Below are positions 35,115 through 46,022 of a stretch of 64,000 nt of DNA, in pieces (position 1 is the first letter of the stretch; every line of letters begins with the position of its first letter). Source of the stretch: an uncultured Candidatus Saccharibacteria bacterium (GTDB lineage: Bacteria > Patescibacteriota > Saccharimonadia > Saccharimonadales > Saccharimonadaceae); contig CAUSPY010000003.1 in NCBI GenBank assembly GCA_963533665.1, positions 6,925-70,924 of the forward strand, given 5' to 3'. Made by a program: the position numbers and the translations under genes. Below the pieces are notes generated by a model that worked only from the letters and a program-made list of their open reading frames with translations, did no database searches and had not been told where the DNA came from.

Positions 35115-35471
35115 TTACGCTGCCTGCTCTTGAGCGGTTTCAGATTCATTATTTAGTATCGTTTTAACCAGCTCGTCAAGAACGATTACTGTGTTGTCAT
35201 CGACTATCTGCTTGTAGTCTGGCACGCGTTCTGCTAGCCACTCAGCAATCTTGTCACCAGAAACACTTTTATCTTCTTGCATAGCTACAAACTCTTTCAA
35301 CTGGTCGTCGTCCAGCGAGTCAAAGAGCTCTTCGCCCACCCGCTCGTTAACTTCATTCTCAGCGCGCTGAATCAAGTCTTCCATCTCATCGTCGGGAAGA
35401 TTAATCCCAACTGCGTTCAACTGCGCTTTAGTGATAGCTACTGTGACTGCGCTAACATTATTATCGTCCAT
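35115..35471 (-). CDS. Hypothetical acidic helical protein
   Basis: A 118-aa ORF, the last gene of a three-ORF minus-strand unit. No motif recognised. Confidence 0.5.
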   Translation of the reverse strand: MDDNNVSAVTVAITKAQLNAVGINLPDDEMEDLIQRAENEVNERVGEELFDSLDDDQLKEFVAMQEDKSVSGDKIAEWLAERVPDYKQIVDDNTVIVLDELVKTILNNESETAQEQAA

Positions 35472-35522
35472 TTTATTTTCCTTTCTGTTTTATATATTCT
35501 TGTTTTAATTTACAGGCTGCGA

Positions 35523-36401
35523 TTACGCAGTTTTAGCTTCCTGGCGATTGCCGCTGCCCTGCAGTTTTCGCCTGATTGCCTGTCCAGCTCTCCTGAGCAG
35601 ACCGTGCGCCGCAGTTGGCCCGTCAACAAATTCTGCAACTCTGGTAAATGCTGATGAGGCAGCATTTTCCAAACGCTCAACACGACCATCGTTATTATCT
35701 CGTTTTGCATCAGCAACTCTATCTTGAAGCTCTCTTAGTCCTTGACGTGATCTGGTTAAGTCGCTAAAGCTATCCACGCTTCGACCGACTAATCTAGTCT
35801 TAATAGCTGACTCTGCATTGCGCCGCACCCTCGCCGCCGCTAATTTACCTTCAGCCCTCAGGAGCGCCATTTTAGCATCAGTATCTTCGGGATTTTTATC
35901 GCTAATCTCTTTCGCTTTATCGCGTTTATCTTGTGCTCTTTCCACCTGAGTGTCAAGCCGCCTCACCCGACGCTCAGCTCTCCTAGCTCTAGACACGGCT
36001 GCTCTCATCTCTACTTTTTGCCTCTTCAATTCAGCCTTCTTATCTGAAATATCAGCCTTATCTGTCTCAATACCAGTACTACGCCTTTCAGAATCGTCTT
36101 TAATCTCTTGAGCGCGTGCCGCTATCTCGCCTAATTTCTTCTTTCGAGCTTTTTGCCGCTCCCCATATTCACGTTCTCTCTCAGCTTTAGCCGCTGCGCG
36201 CTTATTCTTCCGCTCTTCGCGCCTACTCCGAGCACTCTCTGCAAGCTCATGAATTTTCTTCGCACTTTTTTCTCTAGCTTCGGATGCTTTCTCCGCAGTC
36301 GCTTTTGCAGCCCTAGGACCTTCAATCGCAGCAAAACCAACTGCAACGCTTGCGCCCTTTGCGACCGCTTCGCCCGCTGTCTTGGCGCCGCCTCTTGCCA
36401 A
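35523..36401 (-). CDS. Hypothetical Ala/Arg/Lys/Glu-rich coiled-coil protein, possibly the downstream part of a frameshifted gene
   Basis: The track start is a TTG. The same frame is open upstream to a TAA at 36429-36431 and connects to ORF 36412..36837 by a +1 shift at an A5 run. Confidence 0.5.
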   Translation of the reverse strand: MARGGAKTAGEAVAKGASVAVGFAAIEGPRAAKATAEKASEAREKSAKKIHELAESARSRREERKNKRAAAKAEREREYGERQKARKKKLGEIAARAQEIKDDSERRSTGIETDKADISDKKAELKRQKVEMRAAVSRARRAERRVRRLDTQVERAQDKRDKAKEISDKNPEDTDAKMALLRAEGKLAAARVRRNAESAIKTRLVGRSVDSFSDLTRSRQGLRELQDRVADAKRDNNDGRVERLENAASSAFTRVAEFVDGPTAAHGLLRRAGQAIRRKLQGSGNRQEAKTA

Positions 36402-36411
36402 GCGTACAAGT

Positions 36412-36837
36412 TTACCCGCAATTCCTTTTTATGCCGGCTCTAGCGCTACTAAACAACTCTTTACCACTAGCTTTGGCACGCTCAGTCACACCAGCAATTA
36501 TCTGCCGGCCTCTGTCTTCATAGCTCATACCCGCATCTACAGATGTCCGCTCCCCCGCGTTTTGAGCTAAGCGCGTATCAATAATATTATCTGGTAAATT
36601 TGGACCTTCAACTTTATACGGGAAAAGTCCATAACCACCAGGTCTAGGAGCGACTCTGTAAGTATTCTTATTCTGGGGTTGAATTGAGGGAGGAAGAGGA
36701 AAATTTTCCTGCCCGTTCTTACCTATATCAGCGGGAGTTGTCACATCTCCCATATTATCCCACGCAGTAAACCTCGGCGCCTCATCGGGCGATGCTGCCA
36801 TTGGCGCTGTTTCTGCTGACGCTGTTTTCATTGTCAT
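36412..36837 (-). CDS. Hypothetical protein, possibly the upstream part of a frameshifted gene
   Basis: A 141-aa ORF with a gaaagga SD. It ends 'AGIKRNCG*' just after the sequence ata-aaa-agg. Confidence 0.5.
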   Translation of the reverse strand: MTMKTASAETAPMAASPDEAPRFTAWDNMGDVTTPADIGKNGQENFPLPPSIQPQNKNTYRVAPRPGGYGLFPYKVEGPNLPDNIIDTRLAQNAGERTSVDAGMSYEDRGRQIIAGVTERAKASGKELFSSARAGIKRNCG

Positions 36838-37559: not shown

Positions 37560-38288
37560 TTATTTATCTCCCTTTTTTACTGCCTTGTCTTCCTTTTTTA
37601 CTGCGCCAGCGCCCTCGGCTACTGCTTTGGCAAAGTAGCTTAATAGCAATTGGATACTCTTAATTGCATCATCATTGCCTGGAATAACATAATTGATACC
37701 GGTTGGATTGACATTAGTATCAACCACGGCAAACACTGGTATACCCAGAGCCTCTGCCTCGCGCACTGCGTTCGCATCAGTCAGCGCGTCAACCACGACC
37801 ACTGCGCCCGGCTTGCCCATCAAATTCTTAATGCCGCCGTATTTGAAATTCAGGTTATCAATTTCCTCCTGAAAACGCTGCACTTCCAGCTTGTTGTAGC
37901 GCTTTTCCAGGTCACCTGATGCCATACGCTTCTCAAGGTTCTTCAGCTTCTTGATTTGCTGAGCAATCGTCGCGCCGTTGGTCAGCATACCGCCAATCCA
38001 GCGCTCAACCACGTACGGCTGGTTGATACTCTCGGCCGCCTGGCGCACCACGTCCTTAGCTTGCTTTTTCGTACCGACGAATAATATCTTTTTACCGCTA
38101 GCGGCAATCTTCGTCAACTCCGGCAGCGCCTTGTCCAGCGCCTCAGCCGTCTTTGCCAAGTCAATAATATGACTATCTTGGCGTTTTGAATGAATATATG
38201 GCGCCATCTTCGGGTGCCAGCGGCTAGTTTTGTGCCCAAAATGGACACCAGCTTCAAATAAAGCTTTCATGTCTACTGCTACAGACAT
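37560..38288 (-). CDS. rpsB: 30S ribosomal protein S2
   Basis: 'LFEAGVHFGHKTSRWHPKM' and 'ILFVGTKKQA' are canonical S2 sequences. Confidence 0.96.
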   Translation of the reverse strand: MSVAVDMKALFEAGVHFGHKTSRWHPKMAPYIHSKRQDSHIIDLAKTAEALDKALPELTKIAASGKKILFVGTKKQAKDVVRQAAESINQPYVVERWIGGMLTNGATIAQQIKKLKNLEKRMASGDLEKRYNKLEVQRFQEEIDNLNFKYGGIKNLMGKPGAVVVVDALTDANAVREAEALGIPVFAVVDTNVNPTGINYVIPGNDDAIKSIQLLLSYFAKAVAEGAGAVKKEDKAVKKGDK

Positions 38289-38309
38289 TAGGTTACTCCT
38301 TTTCCTCGC

Positions 38310-38333
38310 CCGCCGCTTTTGGAGCTGCGGCGG
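38310..38333 (-). promoter_or_regulatory. GC-rich hairpin in the rpsB 5' leader, just upstream of the SD
   Basis: ccgccgc (38310-38316) pairs with gcggcgg (38327-38333) around a 10-nt loop. A TGTTACAAT box lies at 38364-38372 on the minus strand. Confidence 0.3.
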
Positions 38334-38453
38334 ACTGTGTCGTTAATAATTAGTTACCTAGTCATTGTAACACACTGGGGGAGTAGAATCCAAAAACTTG
38401 CCCTAACTCACCACATCGCGTACAAATACAGCTGTTAGCTATATAGCCACAGA

Positions 38454-39062
38454 TTACTCTTCACGAGACGCCATGAATTTCTCTAGCTCTTGACTAAGAT
38501 TTAATGCCCTTTCCTCAAAAGGATGAAGTTCTACGACAACTATATCATCACCGCTTGTCTGGGCAATTTCAAAATAGTTAATTTTGTCGCCAGTCACAAA
38601 AACTCCCTTTATACAATTCACACCCCACTCCAAATCCCTTGCAGTCGAACTTGGCGCTGATTCACCAGGTAGATTTGCCGACAGCTTAAATAGCATGACA
38701 GAGCCAGTTTTCTTCCCTCTTGGCTCGCCAGATGTATGCGCACCAAAAGCCGTAACTGAGGTATTTAATTCTACTGGCATGTCGTAATAAGAACAAAGGA
38801 CACATTCATGAGGTCTAAATAACTTTGCTTTTACACTATCACCGCCGCAAATCTCCGAAAGACCTACCCCAAAGGTATTAACAAGTCCTTTACTAAGACT
38901 TGTTAACGCACGACCCATATTAACTTCCTCAGTGTTATCGGGTTGTTTCAATATTTCAGTAATTGTCTGCGCCTCTTCTTTCTCCCCAGGTCGTCGAACC
39001 TCTTTCGCCATTAGTTCCCACAAGTTATATCCACTCAAAATAGAAGGCTGCTCACTATTCAT
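38454..39062 (-). CDS. Hypothetical protein, paralogue 1 of an unrecognised family
   Basis: A 202-aa ORF that shares several colinear blocks with ORF 39336..40001, such as 'VKAKLFRPHECV' versus 'VRAKLFNPRQCF'. Confidence 0.55.
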   Translation of the reverse strand: MNSEQPSILSGYNLWELMAKEVRRPGEKEEAQTITEILKQPDNTEEVNMGRALTSLSKGLVNTFGVGLSEICGGDSVKAKLFRPHECVLCSYYDMPVELNTSVTAFGAHTSGEPRGKKTGSVMLFKLSANLPGESAPSSTARDLEWGVNCIKGVFVTGDKINYFEIAQTSGDDIVVVELHPFEERALNLSQELEKFMASREE

Positions 39063-39335
39063 ATTTTATAACTCCACGCTTTTATATTAATCCTGAATAT
39101 GCACAATTATAAATTTTTATATTTATCTTTTCAATAGTAGACAAAGCAGCAATTAACTGTATCTCTACTGAACCCTCTCTGTCTGAATATTACCAATGAA
39201 TGTTAGATTTTCGCACATTGCCCTCAAACCGCCGAGCCGCTTTTTTAGGCTTATCTCATCGCCACCCCTAATTCTTTGCAGCGCCTTATGAAGCATACGT
39301 GCTATCAAAGACATCCACTAATAAACAACCATCTC

Positions 39336-40001
39336 CTACGCCGCAACCGCATCCTCGCGCGATTTGAGAAATTTATCAAGTTCATCTTGCAAACTTACTG
39401 CTTCTTTGCTTGACGGGTCAAATTCAATAATGACCGGATCCATGTAGCCCTCCTTTTTCGGAGCAAGCTGAAAATATGTAATAGCATCATCTTTCACGAC
39501 TGCGCCGTAGACGTCATTCTTATCCCGATCAGAGCCTACCGCCGTTGAAGGCGTAAAAGTCTCGCCAGCCGAATCTTCCGACATATTAAACAATATTACT
39601 AAACCTTCCCATTTTCTGGTAGTCCCACTTCGATGAACGCCGCGTTCATAAGCATCAAAAGCCGCGATAGGAACGGTCGTTTCTATTGGCGCAATCTGAG
39701 AGTTGCCGTCAAAACATTGGCGCGGATTAAATAACTTTGCCCGAACAATATTGGTATAAGATGTAATTTTTAACGTCAAATGAAATTGAAAATTTAGCGC
39801 AACATGAAGACCGTCCATCCGGCTATTACTGCGTACATAAAGATCTTCAACGCTGTCAGGCGATTCTAATACCGCATTAAGTTTTTCAATTCTTTCCTGA
39901 CCTTCCGTTTCACCATGTTCGACTGATTTTTCTGAGTTATCCGCACCGAATGTATCAGATTCATAACGTCCAATAAACGACGACCGAATACCTTTTTCCA
40001 T
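39336..40001 (-). CDS. Hypothetical protein, paralogue 2 of an unrecognised family
   Basis: A 221-aa ORF that shares colinear blocks with ORF 38454..39062, such as 'LQDELDKFLKSRE' versus 'LSQELEKFMASRE'. Confidence 0.55.
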   Translation of the reverse strand: MEKGIRSSFIGRYESDTFGADNSEKSVEHGETEGQERIEKLNAVLESPDSVEDLYVRSNSRMDGLHVALNFQFHLTLKITSYTNIVRAKLFNPRQCFDGNSQIAPIETTVPIAAFDAYERGVHRSGTTRKWEGLVILFNMSEDSAGETFTPSTAVGSDRDKNDVYGAVVKDDAITYFQLAPKKEGYMDPVIIEFDPSSKEAVSLQDELDKFLKSREDAVAA

Positions 40002-40108
40002 AAAAAAATAATAGACTCCCAGTTTTTTCCTTGCTATTAATCTGGACTATACGCTTTTCACTCTGTTTCGTCAAGCATTTTGACATATTGCATGGATTTT
40101 GCAACAAT

Positions 40109-40137
40109 TTGCAATCCGCCTGCTTTCCTGCTAAAAT
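40109..40137 (+). promoter_or_regulatory. Sigma-70-like promoter of rpmE2
   Basis: TTGCAA (40109-40114), a 17-nt spacer, then TAAAAT (40132-40137) preceded by TGc. The ATG lies 9 nt downstream. Confidence 0.5.
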
Positions 40138-40146
40138 ACTAGGGTT

Positions 40147-40524
40147 ATGAAAAGCAGTATTCACCCACAGAACTATCGCCCGGTCGTATTTAGCGACGAT
40201 CAAGCGGGCTTCGCGTTCTTGACTCAGTCAACAGCGCAGACAGACGATACCATCGTTTGGGAAGATGGCAAGACTTATCCACTTGTCAAGGTGCACATCT
40301 CCAGCGCCTCGCACCCATTCTTCACCGGCGAAGAAAAGATCATCGACACCGAAGGTCGCGTTGACCGGTTCAAAGCACGCCAGGAGGCAGCCGCTAAACG
40401 CCGCGCCGAGTTGGCTAATAAGGCGAAAAAGCGAAACGCAGCCGCCGCAGCCAAGGCTCAGCAAACCGCCGCTAGCGGAGACGACGCCAAATCAGCGAAA
40501 CCGTCTAAAAAGGCTAAGAAATAG
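40147..40524 (+). CDS. rpmE2: 50S ribosomal protein L31, type B (no Cys zinc motif), with an Ala/Lys-rich C-terminal extension
   Basis: '[29 protein letters not shown]...[20 protein letters not shown]' lacks CxxC. About 45 extra residues follow ('[27 protein letters not shown]...KKAKK'). Confidence 0.85.
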
Positions 40525-40560
40525 GGCGATAAAAAAACTAGACTCCATCAACCACACAAC

Positions 40561-40592
40561 ATAACACCGCTGCTATCTGTCAGCGGTGTTAT
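40561..40592. terminator. Perfect 12-bp stem-loop between convergent rpmE2 and ORF 40644..41465
   Basis: The sequence reads ataacaccgctg-ctatctgt-cagcggtgttat and is followed by gttt. Confidence 0.6.
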
Positions 40593-40643
40593 GTTTGCAG
40601 AATATTTTAGAGTAGTTGAATCTGGCTCTATAGCTTGACCGAA

Positions 40644-41465
40644 TTAATTATCACTCATAGCTTTCTGACATACATAAGCACCAGTATTGCACACAGCAAC
40701 CCTCCTTCGAGCAGCAGCCTCCTGACCATTTCTCTGACCAATCCATCTTTTCTGCTCTTCTGTCCAGCCATAAACATCAACACTTTTGCCAGCTCTTTCA
40801 AAAACAAGCTGTATCATTTCACCTACAATAGGCTCTAAACCCAACTGCTGTAAACTATGTGAATAGTGGTCCATAAAAATTTTCTGAATAGTATCATTTT
40901 GCTCAGCAGAAAGATATTGACCATTATGGCATGTTTTAACGGCTTCTCGCAAGCAGGCTTGGTTAGTCTCATCAATCTCTACGCCCAATTCTTGCAAATG
41001 GCATATCGTACGATTGATATACTTTTCTGCTTGCTGCGGTTTCCTCGCTTCATGTTGTGTTGATACTCCAACTAGCGGTCTATCAAGAGCGCCCTCTAGC
41101 AACATGAGCCCTGAAATACGACCTGAGTCTATATAGTCTGGAATCCTTAATTCATCCATAAAACCTCCATGAACACCTCTCAATAGTCCAGAGTATACAA
41201 CTGCAAGACTAATACTGTCATTGAGCGTATAAGTATAAAATGAATTAGCTTCTCTATTAGCTAACCAAGCTCTTGCAGGTGAAGTAGAAAAACATACACA
41301 ATAATCCTGATCCTCAGAAGGTATCAAACCCTCTCCAAGCATAGACTCAATCCCAGCAAAATCATACCCGCGAACAGCATGCCACAAAACTTTAGGATCA
41401 TTTATTATCTCTTGCGATGGCTTTTGTTGTAATAACTCGCGTTCGTTAGATAGTTTTTCTGTCAT
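40644..41465 (-). CDS. Hypothetical protein (orphan)
   Basis: Long ORF with no motif, signal peptide or TM recognised. ATG 41465 (MTEKLS) lies 7 nt after TGTTATAAT. Confidence 0.5.
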   Translation of the reverse strand: MTEKLSNERELLQQKPSQEIINDPKVLWHAVRGYDFAGIESMLGEGLIPSEDQDYCVCFSTSPARAWLANREANSFYTYTLNDSISLAVVYSGLLRGVHGGFMDELRIPDYIDSGRISGLMLLEGALDRPLVGVSTQHEARKPQQAEKYINRTICHLQELGVEIDETNQACLREAVKTCHNGQYLSAEQNDTIQKIFMDHYSHSLQQLGLEPIVGEMIQLVFERAGKSVDVYGWTEEQKRWIGQRNGQEAAARRRVAVCNTGAYVCQKAMSDN

Positions 41466-41622
41466 ATTTTTAATTATAACACAAATGTTTATAATATGCA
41501 AATTTACCGTACTAGTCCACCACCAATCCGCCCCGCCTTTGCAGTCAAAAATCAGGTTTCACACGTTACATAAAACATAACAAAGACCCGCTATTACCTA
41601 TTACCGTAGAAGCTTATCAATA

Positions 41623-41631
41623 TGCTATAAT
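41623..41631 (+). promoter_or_regulatory. Extended -10 box (TGCTATAAT) 9 nt upstream of the prfA ATG
   Basis: The sequence reads tgctataat-tttattact-ATG(41641), with no SD. Confidence 0.45.
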
Positions 41632-41640
41632 TTTATTACT

Positions 41641-42711
41641 ATGGCAAAGATTTCCCTCGATTTGGATGCTTTGAAAGCCGAGCGCGCTAGCCTGGGCGAT
41701 TTTTTAGCGCGTCCCGACGCGTATGGCTCGCCGGATTTCACGAGTAAAAATAAGCGGTTTTCAGAGCTGGAGACGCTTATTGCCAAGGGCGAAGAGCGGG
41801 CGGCATTGGAGCAAAATCTACGTGACGCCAAAGAATTAGCGAATGAGGGCGGCGAATTGGCAGAATTGGCAAAAGCTGAAATCACTGAAACTGAAGCGCG
41901 TCTGGCGGAGCTGGAAGAAGAATTATTTGTCTTACTGACACCTAAAGACCCGAATGATGAGAAAAATATCATCATAGAAATCCGTGCTGGTGCTGGCGGC
42001 GACGAAGCATCATTGTTTGCGGCGGAACTATACCGGATGTATCTACGCTGGTGCGAAGCCAATGGCTACAAAACTGAGCTTATCAGCGAATCCGCTAACG
42101 ATTCCGGCGGTTATAAAGAAGTTATTTTCATGGTCAAGGGCGACGCGCCATACGCCAAATTGAAATTTGAAGGCGGCGTCCACCGCGTCCAGCGCGTGCC
42201 AGTCACTGAAAGCCAAGGCCGCGTCCACACCTCGACCGTCACCGTAGCGGTGTTACCAGAGGCCGAGGAAGCTGACGTTGAAATTAATCCAAGCGACCTA
42301 CGCGTTGACATCTACCGCTCCAGCGGTAATGGCGGCCAAAGCGTCAACACCACTGACTCAGCGGTGCGCATCACTCACCTGCCGACTGGTATCGTCGTCA
42401 CCAACCAGGACGAGAAGTCACAGATTAAGAACCGCGAAAAAGCCATGAGTGTGCTGCGTTCGCGCTTGCTGCAGATGAAAATTGATGAGGAAAATGCCAA
42501 GTTAAGCGCTGAACGACGCTCATTAGTCGGTACTGGCGACCGCTCCGAAAAAATCCGCACCTATAACTTCCCGCAAGACCGCATCACCGACCACCGCATT
42601 CACTACAGCCGCAGCAATATCCCCGCAGCAATGAACGGGGATATTGACGATTTGATTGAGCAATTACAGCGGTATGAGCGGGAGTTGAAAGCGAAGAACG
42701 CCAGAAATTAA
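41641..42711 (+). CDS. prfA: Peptide chain release factor 1
   Basis: The PxT-type tripeptide 'PVT' ('[14 protein letters not shown]') and the GGQ motif ('[24 protein letters not shown]'). Confidence 0.96.
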
Positions 42712-42742
42712 TCATTAGGAGTTTTACTCCATACTATACCGA

Positions 42743-43156
42743 TTAATCTTCCAGTGATTCTAGATATCGCGCATGATCAGCTTCTAGCCCTCTAAGCCTT
42801 CTCCAAAAACTACTCAATTCTAGAACACCCTTATCGTCTATGTAACTTAGAACAAGCGCTGCACCGCCAGCTTCAATACGGCCCTTAACCTGCTCTAAGT
42901 AATTTAAATAAACAGGATTAACCTCATTCTCACGATTATCGTCCGATGTACGGCTACGTCCTCTATACATTAAATAACGAGCCTGATTGGCATCTGTTAT
43001 TATCCGATATTGCGTATTAGTCTCAGCAGCCGCTTGAATAGCAGCAGGAACGTCTTCTTGATGAAGTCTTGGTATGACTACTGCTCTATTATTAGAAACT
43101 GCAGCCTTCATAGAATTCATACTGTCAAGATCCACCTGTCTAATTATTTCCCTCAT
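42743..43156 (-). CDS. Hypothetical protein with a single copy of the island repeat domain
   Basis: ATG 43156 has the SD aaggaagggaagtgag. It contains 'YRIITDANQARYLM', 'EAGGAALVLSY' and 'SSFWRRLRGLE', which also occur in the two upstream genes. Confidence 0.55.
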   Translation of the reverse strand: MREIIRQVDLDSMNSMKAAVSNNRAVVIPRLHQEDVPAAIQAAAETNTQYRIITDANQARYLMYRGRSRTSDDNRENEVNPVYLNYLEQVKGRIEAGGAALVLSYIDDKGVLELSSFWRRLRGLEADHARYLESLED

Positions 43157-43187
43157 ATATCTCACTTCCCTTCCTTAAGCTACTTTG

Positions 43188-44108
43188 CTAATATCTCATT
43201 TCATTAGAATTTCCAGAATCAAATGTTTCTTTAAGTCTTCTATATTTTGTATAAAACTCCTCATCCAGCTGTCTTTCTCCGTCTCTATGCTCTATGACAA
43301 TTACTGCGCCGCCGTTTTGCATTAGACCCTCCACAAACGGTGCTACCTCTTCAAGCAGTTCAGAATCATCGGGCTTATATGACTCAATATGTCCTACATC
43401 TAGTCCCATTACCCCTGTTCTGCGTTGGTTTTCTGCAACCAGTAACTCGCAAGCCTTATTATAATCAGTTATCCTATGACAACCTAGACCAGCTTCGCAA
43501 GCGGCTAGTATGTTTATGGCTGCAAGACTACTATCTTTTGCGGGCCGCGCCGTTGCTCCTTCACCACGGACCATATCTACAAGAGAAGTCGGCGTCTCCC
43601 GCTCCCCTTCAGTCATAGACATACAGCCATCCCCTAAGGATTCTCTAGTAATTGGAAGTTCATCGTCTTCAGGATTCTCAGACAACTCAGAGTCAACGGA
43701 ATTAGAATTTGGCTGTTCACACCGGTCTTCTAACGTTTTCCAAAAGTTGTTTAGATTAGGCTGCTCATTGCCACAAGCTAAGGCAGCCACCGCGAAGCCA
43801 CGTTCAAGAAAACCTCTAGAAGTATTATCTATATATGACAGCTGCGAGTTAAGTTTCCAGCCAGGTTGCCATCCCTGACCCCATAAGCGCCACTCGTTTG
43901 CACTCAACAACTCGCAAGCTTCCTTATCATCTGATGTTATCACACGACATGACGTACCAGTGTCGGTGGCAGCCCGCCTAACAAGGTCTATGTCATCCTC
44001 TTTAAACCACCATGTTATTGCTCTATCGGCTAATAAACTAATAACCCAGTCATCAACACTTTCTGGGTTTCCTGGGCGTTCGCAACCCTCGCGTCCCGTT
44101 CTCTCCAT
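43188..44108 (-). CDS. Hypothetical protein with two copies of the island repeat domain separated by an acidic linker
   Basis: The SD is aaggaagtgagag. Copy 1 has 'CRVITSDDKEACELL...FAVAALACG...NNFWKTLEDR'. Copy 2 has 'CHRITDYNKACELLV...NGGAVIVIEH...EEFYTKYRRLKE'. Confidence 0.55.
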   Translation of the reverse strand: MERTGREGCERPGNPESVDDWVISLLADRAITWWFKEDDIDLVRRAATDTGTSCRVITSDDKEACELLSANEWRLWGQGWQPGWKLNSQLSYIDNTSRGFLERGFAVAALACGNEQPNLNNFWKTLEDRCEQPNSNSVDSELSENPEDDELPITRESLGDGCMSMTEGERETPTSLVDMVRGEGATARPAKDSSLAAINILAACEAGLGCHRITDYNKACELLVAENQRRTGVMGLDVGHIESYKPDDSELLEEVAPFVEGLMQNGGAVIVIEHRDGERQLDEEFYTKYRRLKETFDSGNSNEMRY

Positions 44109-44315
44109 CTAAACTCTCACTTCCTTGCCCACTATAATTTTTATTAGTGCTTCATATATTACTCTCTCTCTGAATTTGTCAAACAGTTTTACAATTTTTA
44201 TCTTATTTTGCAAGAAATGAACTTCCCGTCCCGCCACAATTTGACGCCAAGCGCAGCGGGATTATATAAAACAAACAAATATTACCATTAGCCATACTCT
44301 GGCAATTAATGCCAG

Positions 44316-45413
44316 TTAATAATACCCCTTTTCAATATCATGATATCGTTTACCGAACTCTTCCAATCCAATACTATGTATAGAGTCAGGCACTACAGCC
44401 ATCACCGCACCGCCATTCCTGATGGCTGTATCCGCACGAGTCATAAACCTATCGACCTTCTTATCAATCACCTCTACTATAGATCTACTTCTTACAGGCA
44501 CTGCGCTTCTGGCTGATTTTGCGTATCCGCAGCAAGTTCTTTCAGCTTCTTTTTTAGCAAGCATTTCAACTTTCTCCGGATCTGTTGTCGTATAACACGA
44601 TAAGCCAAGTTGTCTGGCGGCTTCCTGCATCGCCCATACCTTATGGTCGTCTCCCCCTGTCTGAACCAATGTCCAAGGGTGAGATAAAAACGGCGCTATC
44701 TCATTCTCGGACTCAGCGCTTATGCGCCTAACAAATGCGTAGGGCAGCCACTCGCCTTTTTTTTCAGCTTCGCGAGCGCGCTCTTCGCATGGATTATGAT
44801 AGTATCCTTTCAAATGAATTCCTAATAACGCCGCAGCTAAAACGTTATTTGAAACCAAAACAGAAATTGTAACCTCCTTTAGCTCCTCAGAATTAAAATA
44901 CATACCGCATACATAAGCAAGAGCGCCCAGAGTATTGAGTGTAGCATCCTGAATACGCAAATCTTTTCTATTTATTGAAGCCCCTAGCATATACAGCAAA
45001 TCCGCCCTCTGTAAATCAATCTTTCCATCTATCGCATCCTTGACATGGCATAGTTCATGCCGCAAAGTAGCGTCAGAATCAATACAATAACCAGTCTTTA
45101 CGACAACATCAAGTCCTTGGCTATCAGTTTTATTGATTGCCGCATGACCCAGTTCTCTACTTCTCAAATACGAAGAACCTTCAGCGCCAGTAACAACTAT
45201 CGATAAATCGCCCCAGCGATCTCTGGGGATACCAGCATACTTAAGATACTCTTTTAAGCTTTTTTCAGCAACATCAATAGTCTCGCCAGGCGCCAATTCA
45301 GCGCCTAATTTACGATCAAACTGAACCCTCGGAAAGTCTCCCCATTCTCCCCGCATAAACTCATTGCAGGCTGGGTTATCCGTTATGTGCAAACCTTCTG
45401 TGTAACTGCTCAT
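44316..45413 (-). CDS. Hypothetical HExxH (zinc-metallopeptidase-like) protein with a C-terminal island repeat domain
   Basis: 'TLRHELCHVKD' has its His codons at 45057-45059 and 45045-45047. The C-terminus has 'CYTTTDPEKVEMLA...NGGAVMAVVP...EEFGKRYHDIEKG'. Confidence 0.55.
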   Translation of the reverse strand: MSSYTEGLHITDNPACNEFMRGEWGDFPRVQFDRKLGAELAPGETIDVAEKSLKEYLKYAGIPRDRWGDLSIVVTGAEGSSYLRSRELGHAAINKTDSQGLDVVVKTGYCIDSDATLRHELCHVKDAIDGKIDLQRADLLYMLGASINRKDLRIQDATLNTLGALAYVCGMYFNSEELKEVTISVLVSNNVLAAALLGIHLKGYYHNPCEERAREAEKKGEWLPYAFVRRISAESENEIAPFLSHPWTLVQTGGDDHKVWAMQEAARQLGLSCYTTTDPEKVEMLAKKEAERTCCGYAKSARSAVPVRSRSIVEVIDKKVDRFMTRADTAIRNGGAVMAVVPDSIHSIGLEEFGKRYHDIEKGYY

Positions 45414-45419
45414 AAAGCA

Positions 45420-46022
45420 TTAAATCGCGCCAATCGCTTCCGCGCCCTCCAGCAGCTGCGCCAATTTATCAATTTCACCCGGACCGACTGGCTGGTCGTT
45501 TACCCCTAATCGTCTTTCTAGCTGCTTATTTTCCATAATATTATCTAATCTAGACACAACATCATCCATATTGGCGTTAAGTATACCAGGATCATTACCG
45601 CGTAATATATCGGATATTTCAGCTACACGCGTTGACAATGGTTTAGCATTCTCTATCACATCCGTGTTTAGATCATAACGCAGCACTTCATCCCGGTTTT
45701 CCATATGATATCGATATCTACTATTATCACCCAAACCGATATACTTAAGCATGTCTCCTTTATCATCTGAGTATGACCCAACTACAATAGACAGATCTTC
45801 ACTGTCCCCTAACGGCACTCTCAATTCAAGCGACGCCTGCTTTCCATTGCAGCCATCTGAATAAGCAAGCTTACGCACACTTACACTATCAGCAAACCGA
45901 AGTAGTAAATCGTCCACTAGCGCCGACATCTTATATGCCGCCTCCATTTTCTCGGCATCTGTTAAACTCTTTTGATTTTCAAACGGTTTGATGAAATCAA
46001 GGTTGCCTGACAGCTCTTTCAT
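45420..46022 (-). CDS. Hypothetical protein, first gene of the island
   Basis: A 200-aa ORF with no motif recognised. It ends 6 nt before the start of the HExxH gene. Confidence 0.5.
   Translation of the reverse strand: MKELSGNLDFIKPFENQKSLTDAEKMEAAYKMSALVDDLLLRFADSVSVRKLAYSDGCNGKQASLELRVPLGDSEDLSIVVGSYSDDKGDMLKYIGLGDNSRYRYHMENRDEVLRYDLNTDVIENAKPLSTRVAEISDILRGNDPGILNANMDDVVSRLDNIMENKQLERRLGVNDQPVGPGEIDKLAQLLEGAEAIGAI

Follow-up and report, generated by a model that had tools for sequence, protein, structure and literature searches.

Between prfA and prmC of a Candidatus Saccharibacteria genome from the human mouth, three adjacent genes seem to carry one and the same unrecognised domain four times over, which raises the question of whether this repetition is real and, if so, what such a domain does amid housekeeping genes. 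The locus lies in a 64,000-nucleotide (nt) stretch of DNA (contig CAUSPY010000003.1, positions 6,925 to 70,924 of the forward strand), hereafter the window, in which a sequence-only reading had aligned by hand four colinear segments of ~100-120 amino acids (aa). We found that this domain, hereafter X, is a real alpha/beta domain of ~115 aa that was previously uncatalogued. Five features combine at its fixed core-genome site, that is, the uncatalogued X, an uncatalogued family of HExxH proteins, replacement of whole gene cassettes between strains, the recent passage of one such cassette from strain to strain, and a probable homopolymer switch where two domains join, and because of this combination the locus is likely a determinant of interaction or conflict.

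The copies were delimited with an independent hidden Markov model (HMM), built from 11 relatives with the window proteins and their orthologues left out, and run on the 722 open reading frames (ORFs) of the window. The three genes and their parts are listed below, the X copies as HMM envelopes with the expectation value (E) obtained from this model.

42743..43156, minus strand: gene A, 137 aa from the ATG at 43156, a standalone X with an isoelectric point (pI) of 5.5 and the acidic end ...YLESLED
42757..43102, minus strand: X copy 1, in A (9.2e-18)
43188..44108, minus strand: gene B, 306 aa, a two-domain X-X protein, net charge -27, pI 4.5
43691..44036, minus strand: X copy 2, N-terminal half of B, aa 14-137 (7.8e-18)
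43575..43690, minus strand: acidic low-complexity linker between the X domains of B, about aa 140-178, read from the sequence
43202..43574, minus strand: X copy 3, C-terminal half of B, aa 176-295 (1.4e-11)
44316..45413, minus strand: gene C, 365 aa, a fusion of an HExxH module and an X domain
44720..45413, minus strand: HExxH module of C, aa 1-231
44321..44690, minus strand: X copy 4, C-terminus of C, aa 259-362 (1.2e-5)

The four segments were the sole matches of the independent HMM in the window, with no fifth copy among the 722 ORFs, and their envelopes agree with the span 42743-44684 delimited by eye. Leave-one-out HMMs, each built from three copies, recovered the fourth at E values of 1e-3 to 1e-9 (Z=722 ORFs). 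Smith-Waterman alignments scored against 1000 shuffles gave z=7.0 for A and the N-terminal domain of B, 6.3 for A and the C-terminal domain of B, 7.0 for the two domains of B, and 5.1 and 3.5 for the X domain of C aligned with the C- and N-terminal domains of B, respectively; the pair formed by A and the X domain of C was weak (z=1.8). Pairwise identity among the copies is ~17-27%, in colinear blocks, and in-register repeats persist in the DNA itself as a GGA motif in three copies, a KEACELL motif in two and the ribosome-binding leaders of A and B. Shuffled alignments, leave-one-out models and the independent model thus confirmed one domain present four times in three adjacent genes; the objection that the segments might not be significantly similar is answered by five of the six pairs, at z 3.5-7.0, and by profile E values of 1e-5 to 8e-18.

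The domain was described at the outset as belonging to no nameable family, and the databases bore this out. Pfam, NCBIfam, PADLOC and PHROGs held nothing above threshold for A, B, C, the adjacent gene D (mapped below) and three other ORFans, no Pfam family was matched by more than one of 24 X members and none was an Imm (immunity) family, and a PDB sequence profile search with X yielded no match; structural comparison with the PDB was equally empty. An HMM from the four copies, a step proposed by the sequence-only reading, was then scanned by HMMER against 1.84 billion representative proteins and retrieved only 14 clusters (50% identity) at E < 1e-3, all from a narrow group of relatives. They include standalone X proteins of 116-188 aa, a two-domain orthologue of B (P0009, 322 aa; P-numbers denote related protein clusters) and an HExxH-X orthologue of C (P0013, 363 aa). 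A word-index search added a fifth class of paralogues, E, of ~150-158 aa, with numerous allelic and frameshifted forms.

Every X context that we read was an oral-metagenome contig or a Saccharibacteria metagenome-assembled genome (MAG), with the X gene adjoining prfA. In the assembly collection, 173 blocks contain the B protein in identical form, several of the contigs read being labelled human oral metagenome, and a genome scan with B matched a single species representative, a Candidatus Saccharibacteria MAG; NCBI copies of C and D are annotated 'hypothetical protein [Candidatus Saccharimonas sp.]'. No relatives were found by tblastn in phages with B and C or in plasmids with C, nor by a scan of IMG/VR with C, and an origin of the locus from a mobile element was rejected on these grounds. 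We also searched the literature for earlier descriptions of a variable locus in Saccharibacteria, and nothing relevant came up.

Across 24 diverse X members, the only invariant residues are A42 and R69 (numbering of A), followed by the near-invariant A43, L62, L114 and F117. Since a single Ala and a single Arg are all that is invariant, nothing in X looks catalytic and, as judged from this alignment, the domain is without conserved catalytic residues. The acidic pair and the Asp of the I-T-D motif, both part of the pattern originally proposed, were not conserved across these members.

AlphaFold2 did not yield a confident model of B from its single sequence (predicted local distance difference test, pLDDT, 37), and the linker, which carries a charge of -10 over aa 141-185, is unstructured in that model. 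Gene product A, modelled with the 24-sequence alignment, reached a pLDDT of 85.8 and a predicted template-modelling score (pTM) of 0.71. The order of its elements is a0 (residues 2-21), b1 (26-31), a1 (33-45), b2 (49-53), a2 (56-67), a poorly ordered loop (68-80), a3 (81-95), b3 (99-104), a short extra strand and a4 (115-136), the a2-a3 loop being the low-confidence segment. The alternating strands and helices that had been predicted are therefore borne out by the model. The suggestion of a flavodoxin- or Rossmann-like fold was not, as X has three main strands and a short one instead of a parallel sheet of at least five.

Foldseek returned no significant neighbour of this model, either in the PDB (best E 0.46, template-modelling score, TM, <= 0.40) or in the viral structures of BFVD (best E 1.1). 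Among the top 50 PDB matches, 20 were class I S-adenosylmethionine (SAM) methyltransferases and 14 were N-terminal domains of uL10/P0. What X has in common with both groups is a generic three-layer alpha/beta arrangement with a b-a-b-a start; it has neither the GxGxG loop of the methyltransferases nor the signature residues of uL10, and the matches range over E 0.46-6 with TMq <= 0.40. The Rossmann-type methyltransferases were discarded as non-significant (E >= 0.59, TMq <= 0.31). Homology to uL10 was likewise rejected: hhalign gave a probability of 0.7% when X was compared with the single E. coli sequence and of 2% with a four-sequence uL10 profile whose members had been verified on PDB chains, and Foldseek an E of 0.46 at TM 0.31-0.40. 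An origin from the flanking genes fared no better: the string 'AAxET.T..IITD' resembles by eye the PrmC segment AALERTNISVILSD, to which hhalign assigned a probability of 0.04%, and the corresponding value for PrfA was 0.12%. A match to a well-known housekeeping domain, which would have removed the novelty of X, was thus not obtained, homology to uL10 and to PrmC having been rejected.

The genes of the locus and their borders complete the map. Four genes, in the order D, C, B, A when read in their own direction, lie antisense to prfA and prmC and between both.

41641-42711, plus strand: prfA, encoding release factor 1 (RF1)
44109..44315, minus strand: C-B intergenic region, 207 nt, with a stem-loop right after the C stop codon and the leader/ribosome-binding segment GGAAGTGAGA
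45420..46022, minus strand: gene D, 200 aa, acidic, no recognisable domain, ending 6 nt before the C start codon
46083-46919, plus strand: prmC, in the usual prfA-prmC order

B and A are separated by 31 nt, or by 22 nt counted from an alternative GTG start of A at 43165; the 137-aa call is the one made in all assemblies. Net charges are -27 for B, -3 for A and -13 for D. A Kyte-Doolittle (KD) scan found no strongly hydrophobic segment in the locus proteins apart from a borderline one in C (KD 1.9), a possible membrane anchor that is not conserved in the C' allele, and neither the scan nor reading of the sequences disclosed a hydrophobic N-terminal segment in any of them. Both termini of D are conserved, and its centre exists as alternative alleles. 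A leader similar to GGAAGTGAGA stands ahead of each standalone X gene, and in the window it precedes both A and B, as a repeat at 43144-43174 and 44099-44129. The same leader stands before alternative cassettes (P0012, P0030 and P0011), where over-extended gene calls translate it as the N-terminal extension 'GKEVRF'; because the alternative cassettes share it, it may serve as a recombination anchor for cassette exchange.

The ends of the X proteins also follow a pattern. Standalone members (A, window 42743-42770; P0011, P0012, P0014, P0015 and P0019) finish in an acidic tail of the type ...ESLEA, ...ESLED or ...ESSEA, a similar string, DSELSE, stands in the linker of B after the first domain, and E-class proteins end in a basic tail, KKEKWYQRFLKK... 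These tails could be degradation, export or docking motifs.

We then determined the gene layout of every locus fetched from other assemblies (L-numbers) by scoring it with one HMM each for D, X and the HExxH module.

L022-L024 (another species): standalone X only, next to prfA
L015-L017 (another species): HExxH-X only, next to prfA
L027/L028: D, C and one standalone X (P0011)
Window and seven other distinct contigs: D, C, B, A
L001, L004, L009, L014: D, HExxH', C', B, A
L002: D, HExxH', C', B, A plus E
L019/L020: D, HExxH', C', E, B', without A (D not on the short L020 contig)

The number of X copies per locus ranges from one to five, in at least five layouts, and three lineages have X joined to an HExxH module. 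P0020 (in L018), the member that diverges most, lies upstream of prfA, in divergent orientation and on its other side, in the slot that a 285-aa ORF fills in the window. The window, L019 and L027 represent one species; HtrA and prmC of L019 and L027 are ~93-96% identical in nt to those of the window, and the housekeeping proteins of L019 96-98% identical. B' of L019 is only 47% identical to B, and D only 64% identical; moreover, a single unrelated-looking X gene can replace the B-A pair within the species. Which D, C and downstream-cassette alleles are found together varies from locus to locus, and P0061 is a recombinant of the two C classes. Copy number, proposed for inspection between related strains, therefore does vary, and whole cassettes are exchanged.

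The B-A cassette stood out when its DNA was compared with that of its flanks. Block 42700-44200 is 99.9-100% identical between the window and the L001-L010 strains, whose HtrA, prmC and prfA flanks differ by up to 16% (300-nt bins); prfA itself, beside the identical block, is 84-97% identical (300-nt bins). In the same strains synonymous divergence (dS) from the window is 0.12-0.40 for HtrA and rpsB, and 0.15-0.30 for HtrA alone. These loci had been retrieved by exact identity of the B protein, which biases the nonsynonymous rate (dN) and leaves dS unbiased. The near-zero dS of the B-A block therefore indicates recent spread of the cassette across diverged backgrounds by recombination. For the X domain of C, dN/dS is 0.5-0.7, as compared with 0.02-0.07 for HtrA and rpsB. 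Among variants of A, whose dS relative to that of the window is zero in most strains, residues 57-71 account for five of eight distinct substitutions, and a comparison of 20 E-class alleles showed the a2-a3 loop and the b3-a4 turn to be where indels and substitutions accumulate. The local amplification and rapid evolution suspected from the window alone are thus substantiated by the one to five copies, the 47%-identical alleles within a species and these dN/dS values. We infer a conflict role for the locus from such population patterns. As a separate observation, the E class (L002 9388-9861; P0048-P0056) includes at least six independent frameshifted forms, all breaking in the a2-a3 loop and some of them at short runs of T or of A.

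The partner of X in gene C had been called peptidase-like, and two elements of the module speak to this.

45045-45059, minus strand: HELCH of C, aa 119-123
44772-44786, minus strand: E210-x-R212-A213 of C, 87 residues downstream of HExxH

H119, E120 and H123, as well as E210-x-R212-A213, are invariant in four diverged C alleles, with two moderately hydrophobic helices between both motifs. E210-x-R212-A213 is a candidate third zinc ligand and resembles the E-x-x-A motif by which zincins of the M48, M56 and M78 families bind zinc a third time. The module shares with zincin or gluzincin metallopeptidases the HExxH motif, a downstream Glu and a weak match to Pfam Peptidase_M91, seen in three of four HExxH alleles (E 0.07-0.2, 12-13 bits against a cut-off of 25). 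It differs from them in that no family model reaches its threshold and in that the histidines are replaced in one lineage; any catalysis is putative. The description as peptidase-like therefore holds as far as HExxH and the invariant E-x-R-A are concerned, and does not extend to membership of a curated family. The HExxH family comprises 40 proteins from the same narrow group, none with a peptidase Pfam domain, and a PDB sequence search with C and with the HExxH profile found no relative. In P0079/P0080, C orthologues of another lineage with 55 member sequences, QNELCY replaces RHELCH and E-x-C-V replaces E-x-R-A, while the protein retains its length of 365-366 aa and its X domain, the contigs being as long as 92 kb; it may be a pseudo-enzyme. 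Some strains have a second HExxH paralogue (HELQH, ~220 aa), never with an X domain.

The junction between both parts of C contains a homopolymer.

44757..44764, minus strand: A8 tract (GCT GAA AAA AAA GGC), exactly at the HExxH/X junction of C

This run forms an A_AAA_AAA slippery heptamer and varies in length between strains, being A7 in L007, L010 and L026, A9 in L019, and A8 in L020 on the allele of L019. In L028 it is interrupted (GAG AAA AAA), and it is absent from the species that has C and no standalone X. Both A7 and A9 truncate C after the HExxH module and before X. A7-type products, ending in ...EKKASG(C/Y)PTRLLGA, make up four separate clusters from both C allele classes, with 144 member sequences versus ~253 intact. 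The recurrence of A7 in independent allelic backgrounds argues for slipped-strand phase variation rather than assembly error, and the OFF forms should leave an HExxH protein of ~202-230 aa devoid of X. Phase-variable contingency genes of, for example, Neisseria, Haemophilus and Campylobacter switch by slipped-strand mispairing at coding homopolymers. C resembles them in having a coding A8 whose length varies recurrently between isolates (A7, A8 and A9 in otherwise near-identical alleles), with recurrent frameshifts and one stabilising interruption. It differs in that the tract lies at a domain boundary and in that the OFF state should retain the HExxH module instead of silencing the whole gene.

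What, then, might X do? The absence of a catalytic signature, the conserved hydrophobic core, the hypervariable loop, the small and acidic nature of the proteins and their lack of a hydrophobic N-terminus make a protein-binding module under diversifying or frequency-dependent selection the most economical reading of the sequences. By analogy, we tentatively favour X as an immunity or inhibitor-like module in a polyimmunity-like array, C being a protease that would carry its partner in cis. Each of the X paralogues would serve to neutralise a single protein-toxin or protease variant, whether the HExxH protein of the locus itself or toxins from neighbours or from the host bacterium. The A/B/(E) array would act as a homogeneous polyimmunity locus, with B as a polyimmunity protein, and slippage at the A-run would toggle C between fused and unfused forms.

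The homogeneous polyimmunity loci of polymorphic toxin systems consist of tandem, same-strand and distantly related immunity paralogues separated by small intergenic gaps, some polyimmunity proteins join several immunity domains in one polypeptide, and the number and type of genes differ among strains of one species (Zhang, Aravind et al. 2012, PMC3482391). The human oral cavity is named among the ecosystems in which such loci act, and one immunity domain, Imm35, is occasionally fused to proteases (PMC3482391). The locus is alike in that C, B and A are in tandem on the minus strand, B fuses two distantly related X domains, and the number and type of genes vary among strains of a single species. 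It is unlike those described (PMC3482391) in that X gave no match to a described Imm family and no recognisable toxin or toxin cassette is linked to it. Immunity genes are assigned by adjacency to toxin domains, and the sole candidate toxin close by is the uncharacterised HExxH module. Furthermore, the array comprises one to five domains at a fixed core-genome site at prfA, and the family sits in one narrow group rather than being laterally spread.

Several observations weigh against an immunity role. Library scans detected no trafficking or toxin domain in the genes of the locus and no Imm match, and X is restricted to a narrow group whereas immunity families usually span many phyla. The 207-nt gap between C and B, larger than the small gaps of polyimmunity loci, means that the array does not form a single tight operon. 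Linkage between C alleles and the cassettes downstream, as would be expected of a cognate pair, is absent. In at least two lineages X is the sole gene of the system between housekeeping neighbours, on short contigs with the rest of the genomes out of view. Such X-only loci, together with the full-length C lineage lacking the histidines, argue that X is not simply the inhibitor of this protease. Finally, the frequent frameshifts in C and E and dN/dS values near 0.5-1 are also compatible with relaxed constraint.

Saccharibacteria are obligate epibionts, and the locus could instead encode a set of effectors directed at the actinobacterial host, with C as a zincin effector protease, X as its targeting or recognition domain, and standalone X proteins as co-delivered effectors or adaptors; the diversity of X would then follow host strain specificity. 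The extreme allelic diversity and the cassette swaps among strains would suit this role, as would the weak resemblance of three of four HExxH alleles to Peptidase_M91, a family of NleD-type effectors, and the acidic C-terminal tail common to standalone X proteins from seven clusters, which could be an export or recognition motif. That match, however, is under the Pfam cut-off and covers little besides the HExxH helix, no protein of the locus has a hydrophobic N-terminal segment, and no secretion genes are nearby, the large window ORFs tested being housekeeping (SecA, aminoacyl-tRNA synthetases, Mur ligase). Small, acidic proteins without catalytic residues are also atypical effectors, and we regard the proposal as unlikely. 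Much the same standing befits a regulated protease complex, in which X would be an oligomerisation or sensor domain and the assembly of A, B and the X domain of C would control HExxH activity or substrate choice, by a logic analogous to that of BlaR1, ImmA/IrrE and similar pairings of a sensor with a protease. That B holds two X domains in tandem suggests a dimer or higher oligomer, the modelled core has a long helix at either end (a0 and a4), X is joined to HExxH in three lineages, probable phase variation toggles that fusion, and the X-less HExxH paralogue is present only in strains that also have standalone X genes. Yet the locus has no DNA-binding or signalling partner, its C alleles and cassettes assort independently, and X-only loci exist; obligate subunits are not normally lost or exchanged for 47%-identical alleles between strains, which renders this arrangement rather improbable.

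Could the genes be decaying lineage-specific ORFans, selfish or neutral remnants whose diversity reflects relaxed constraint plus recombination? Frameshifted copies of C, E and A are common, dN/dS rises to 0.5-1.0 (~2 for D, on very few differences), one lineage is without the catalytic histidines, the cassette is missing in some strains, and G+C is 0.43 versus ~0.48 in the flanks. Nonetheless, the fold-defining core is kept down to ~20% identity, such that 24 sequences sufficed for a confident model, and most assemblies retain intact ORFs with good ribosome-binding sites. In addition, B-A has spread among strains at ~100% identity, and the A-run is kept in both diverged C classes even though synonymous codons could break it. 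Decay is thus quite unlikely in our view, and a translation-linked factor is less likely still. The latter would be a uL10-like protein, or one associated with the ribosome or release factor, tied to prfA and prmC. All X genes with readable context adjoin prfA, including the most divergent member on its other side, uL10/P0 domains account for 14 of the 50 top Foldseek matches, and hhalign twice aligned the same b1-a1-b2 segment to uL10. These alignments, however, have E >= 0.46 and TM 0.31-0.40 in Foldseek and probabilities of 0.7-2% in hhalign (<0.2% for PrmC and PrfA of the window), and synteny at prfA among close relatives is explained by shared ancestry of the locus. Presence/absence polymorphism, one to five copies and 47%-identical alleles are unexpected of a translation component, which makes this role very improbable.

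Returning to X as an immunity or inhibitor-like module, a more specific version, which we consider doubtful, would make it a binding or immunity domain of new structure, central to a conflict system peculiar to Saccharibacteria and equipped with a homopolymer switch and interchangeable cassettes. If it were true, the boundary switch would decide whether a metalloprotease carries its partner domain, and recombining X cassettes would set which competitor, host or phage variant a strain withstands or exploits. We know of no such design in any catalogued defence, toxin-immunity or effector system. As it stands, X constitutes a new domain family, and the locus that harbours it is organised much like known conflict and contingency loci, short of the functional tests that define them. 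Saccharibacteria are ultra-small epibionts with reduced genomes, and to our knowledge little has been established about the determinants of host range in individual strains or of survival in dense biofilms of the mouth; the locus gives genetic work on cultivated relatives a specific target. With X, it further contributes a domain that could be modelled with confidence and has no significant structural neighbour in the PDB or the viral structure library. A family this narrow (14 clusters) would be of limited general importance unless its mechanism is new.

The surroundings of the locus are a housekeeping stretch, in which the window contains SecA, several aminoacyl-tRNA synthetases, a Mur ligase, rpsB, tsf, rpmE, prfA, prmC, HtrA, an LCP protein and parAB. 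Promoter/terminator, Rfam and tRNA scans were uninformative or empty. G+C is 0.43-0.44 over the ORFan islands (38001-46000) as compared with ~0.48 in the rest of the window. Within this region, a second tandem ORFan pair lies between rpsB and rpmE (38454-39062 and 39336-40001, both on the minus strand), encoding proteins of 202 and 221 aa that are 32% identical (E 4e-24) and match no Pfam family. The gene content of this island varies among strains, for example 221+634+309 aa versus 246+207 aa. Two more strain-variable ORFan islands occur between core genes, at 40644-41501 on the minus strand and at 35115-36837, the latter between tsf and an SMC-like gene; the genes found in other strains encode 210-288 aa at the prfA|rpmE slot and form different sets at tsf|SMC.

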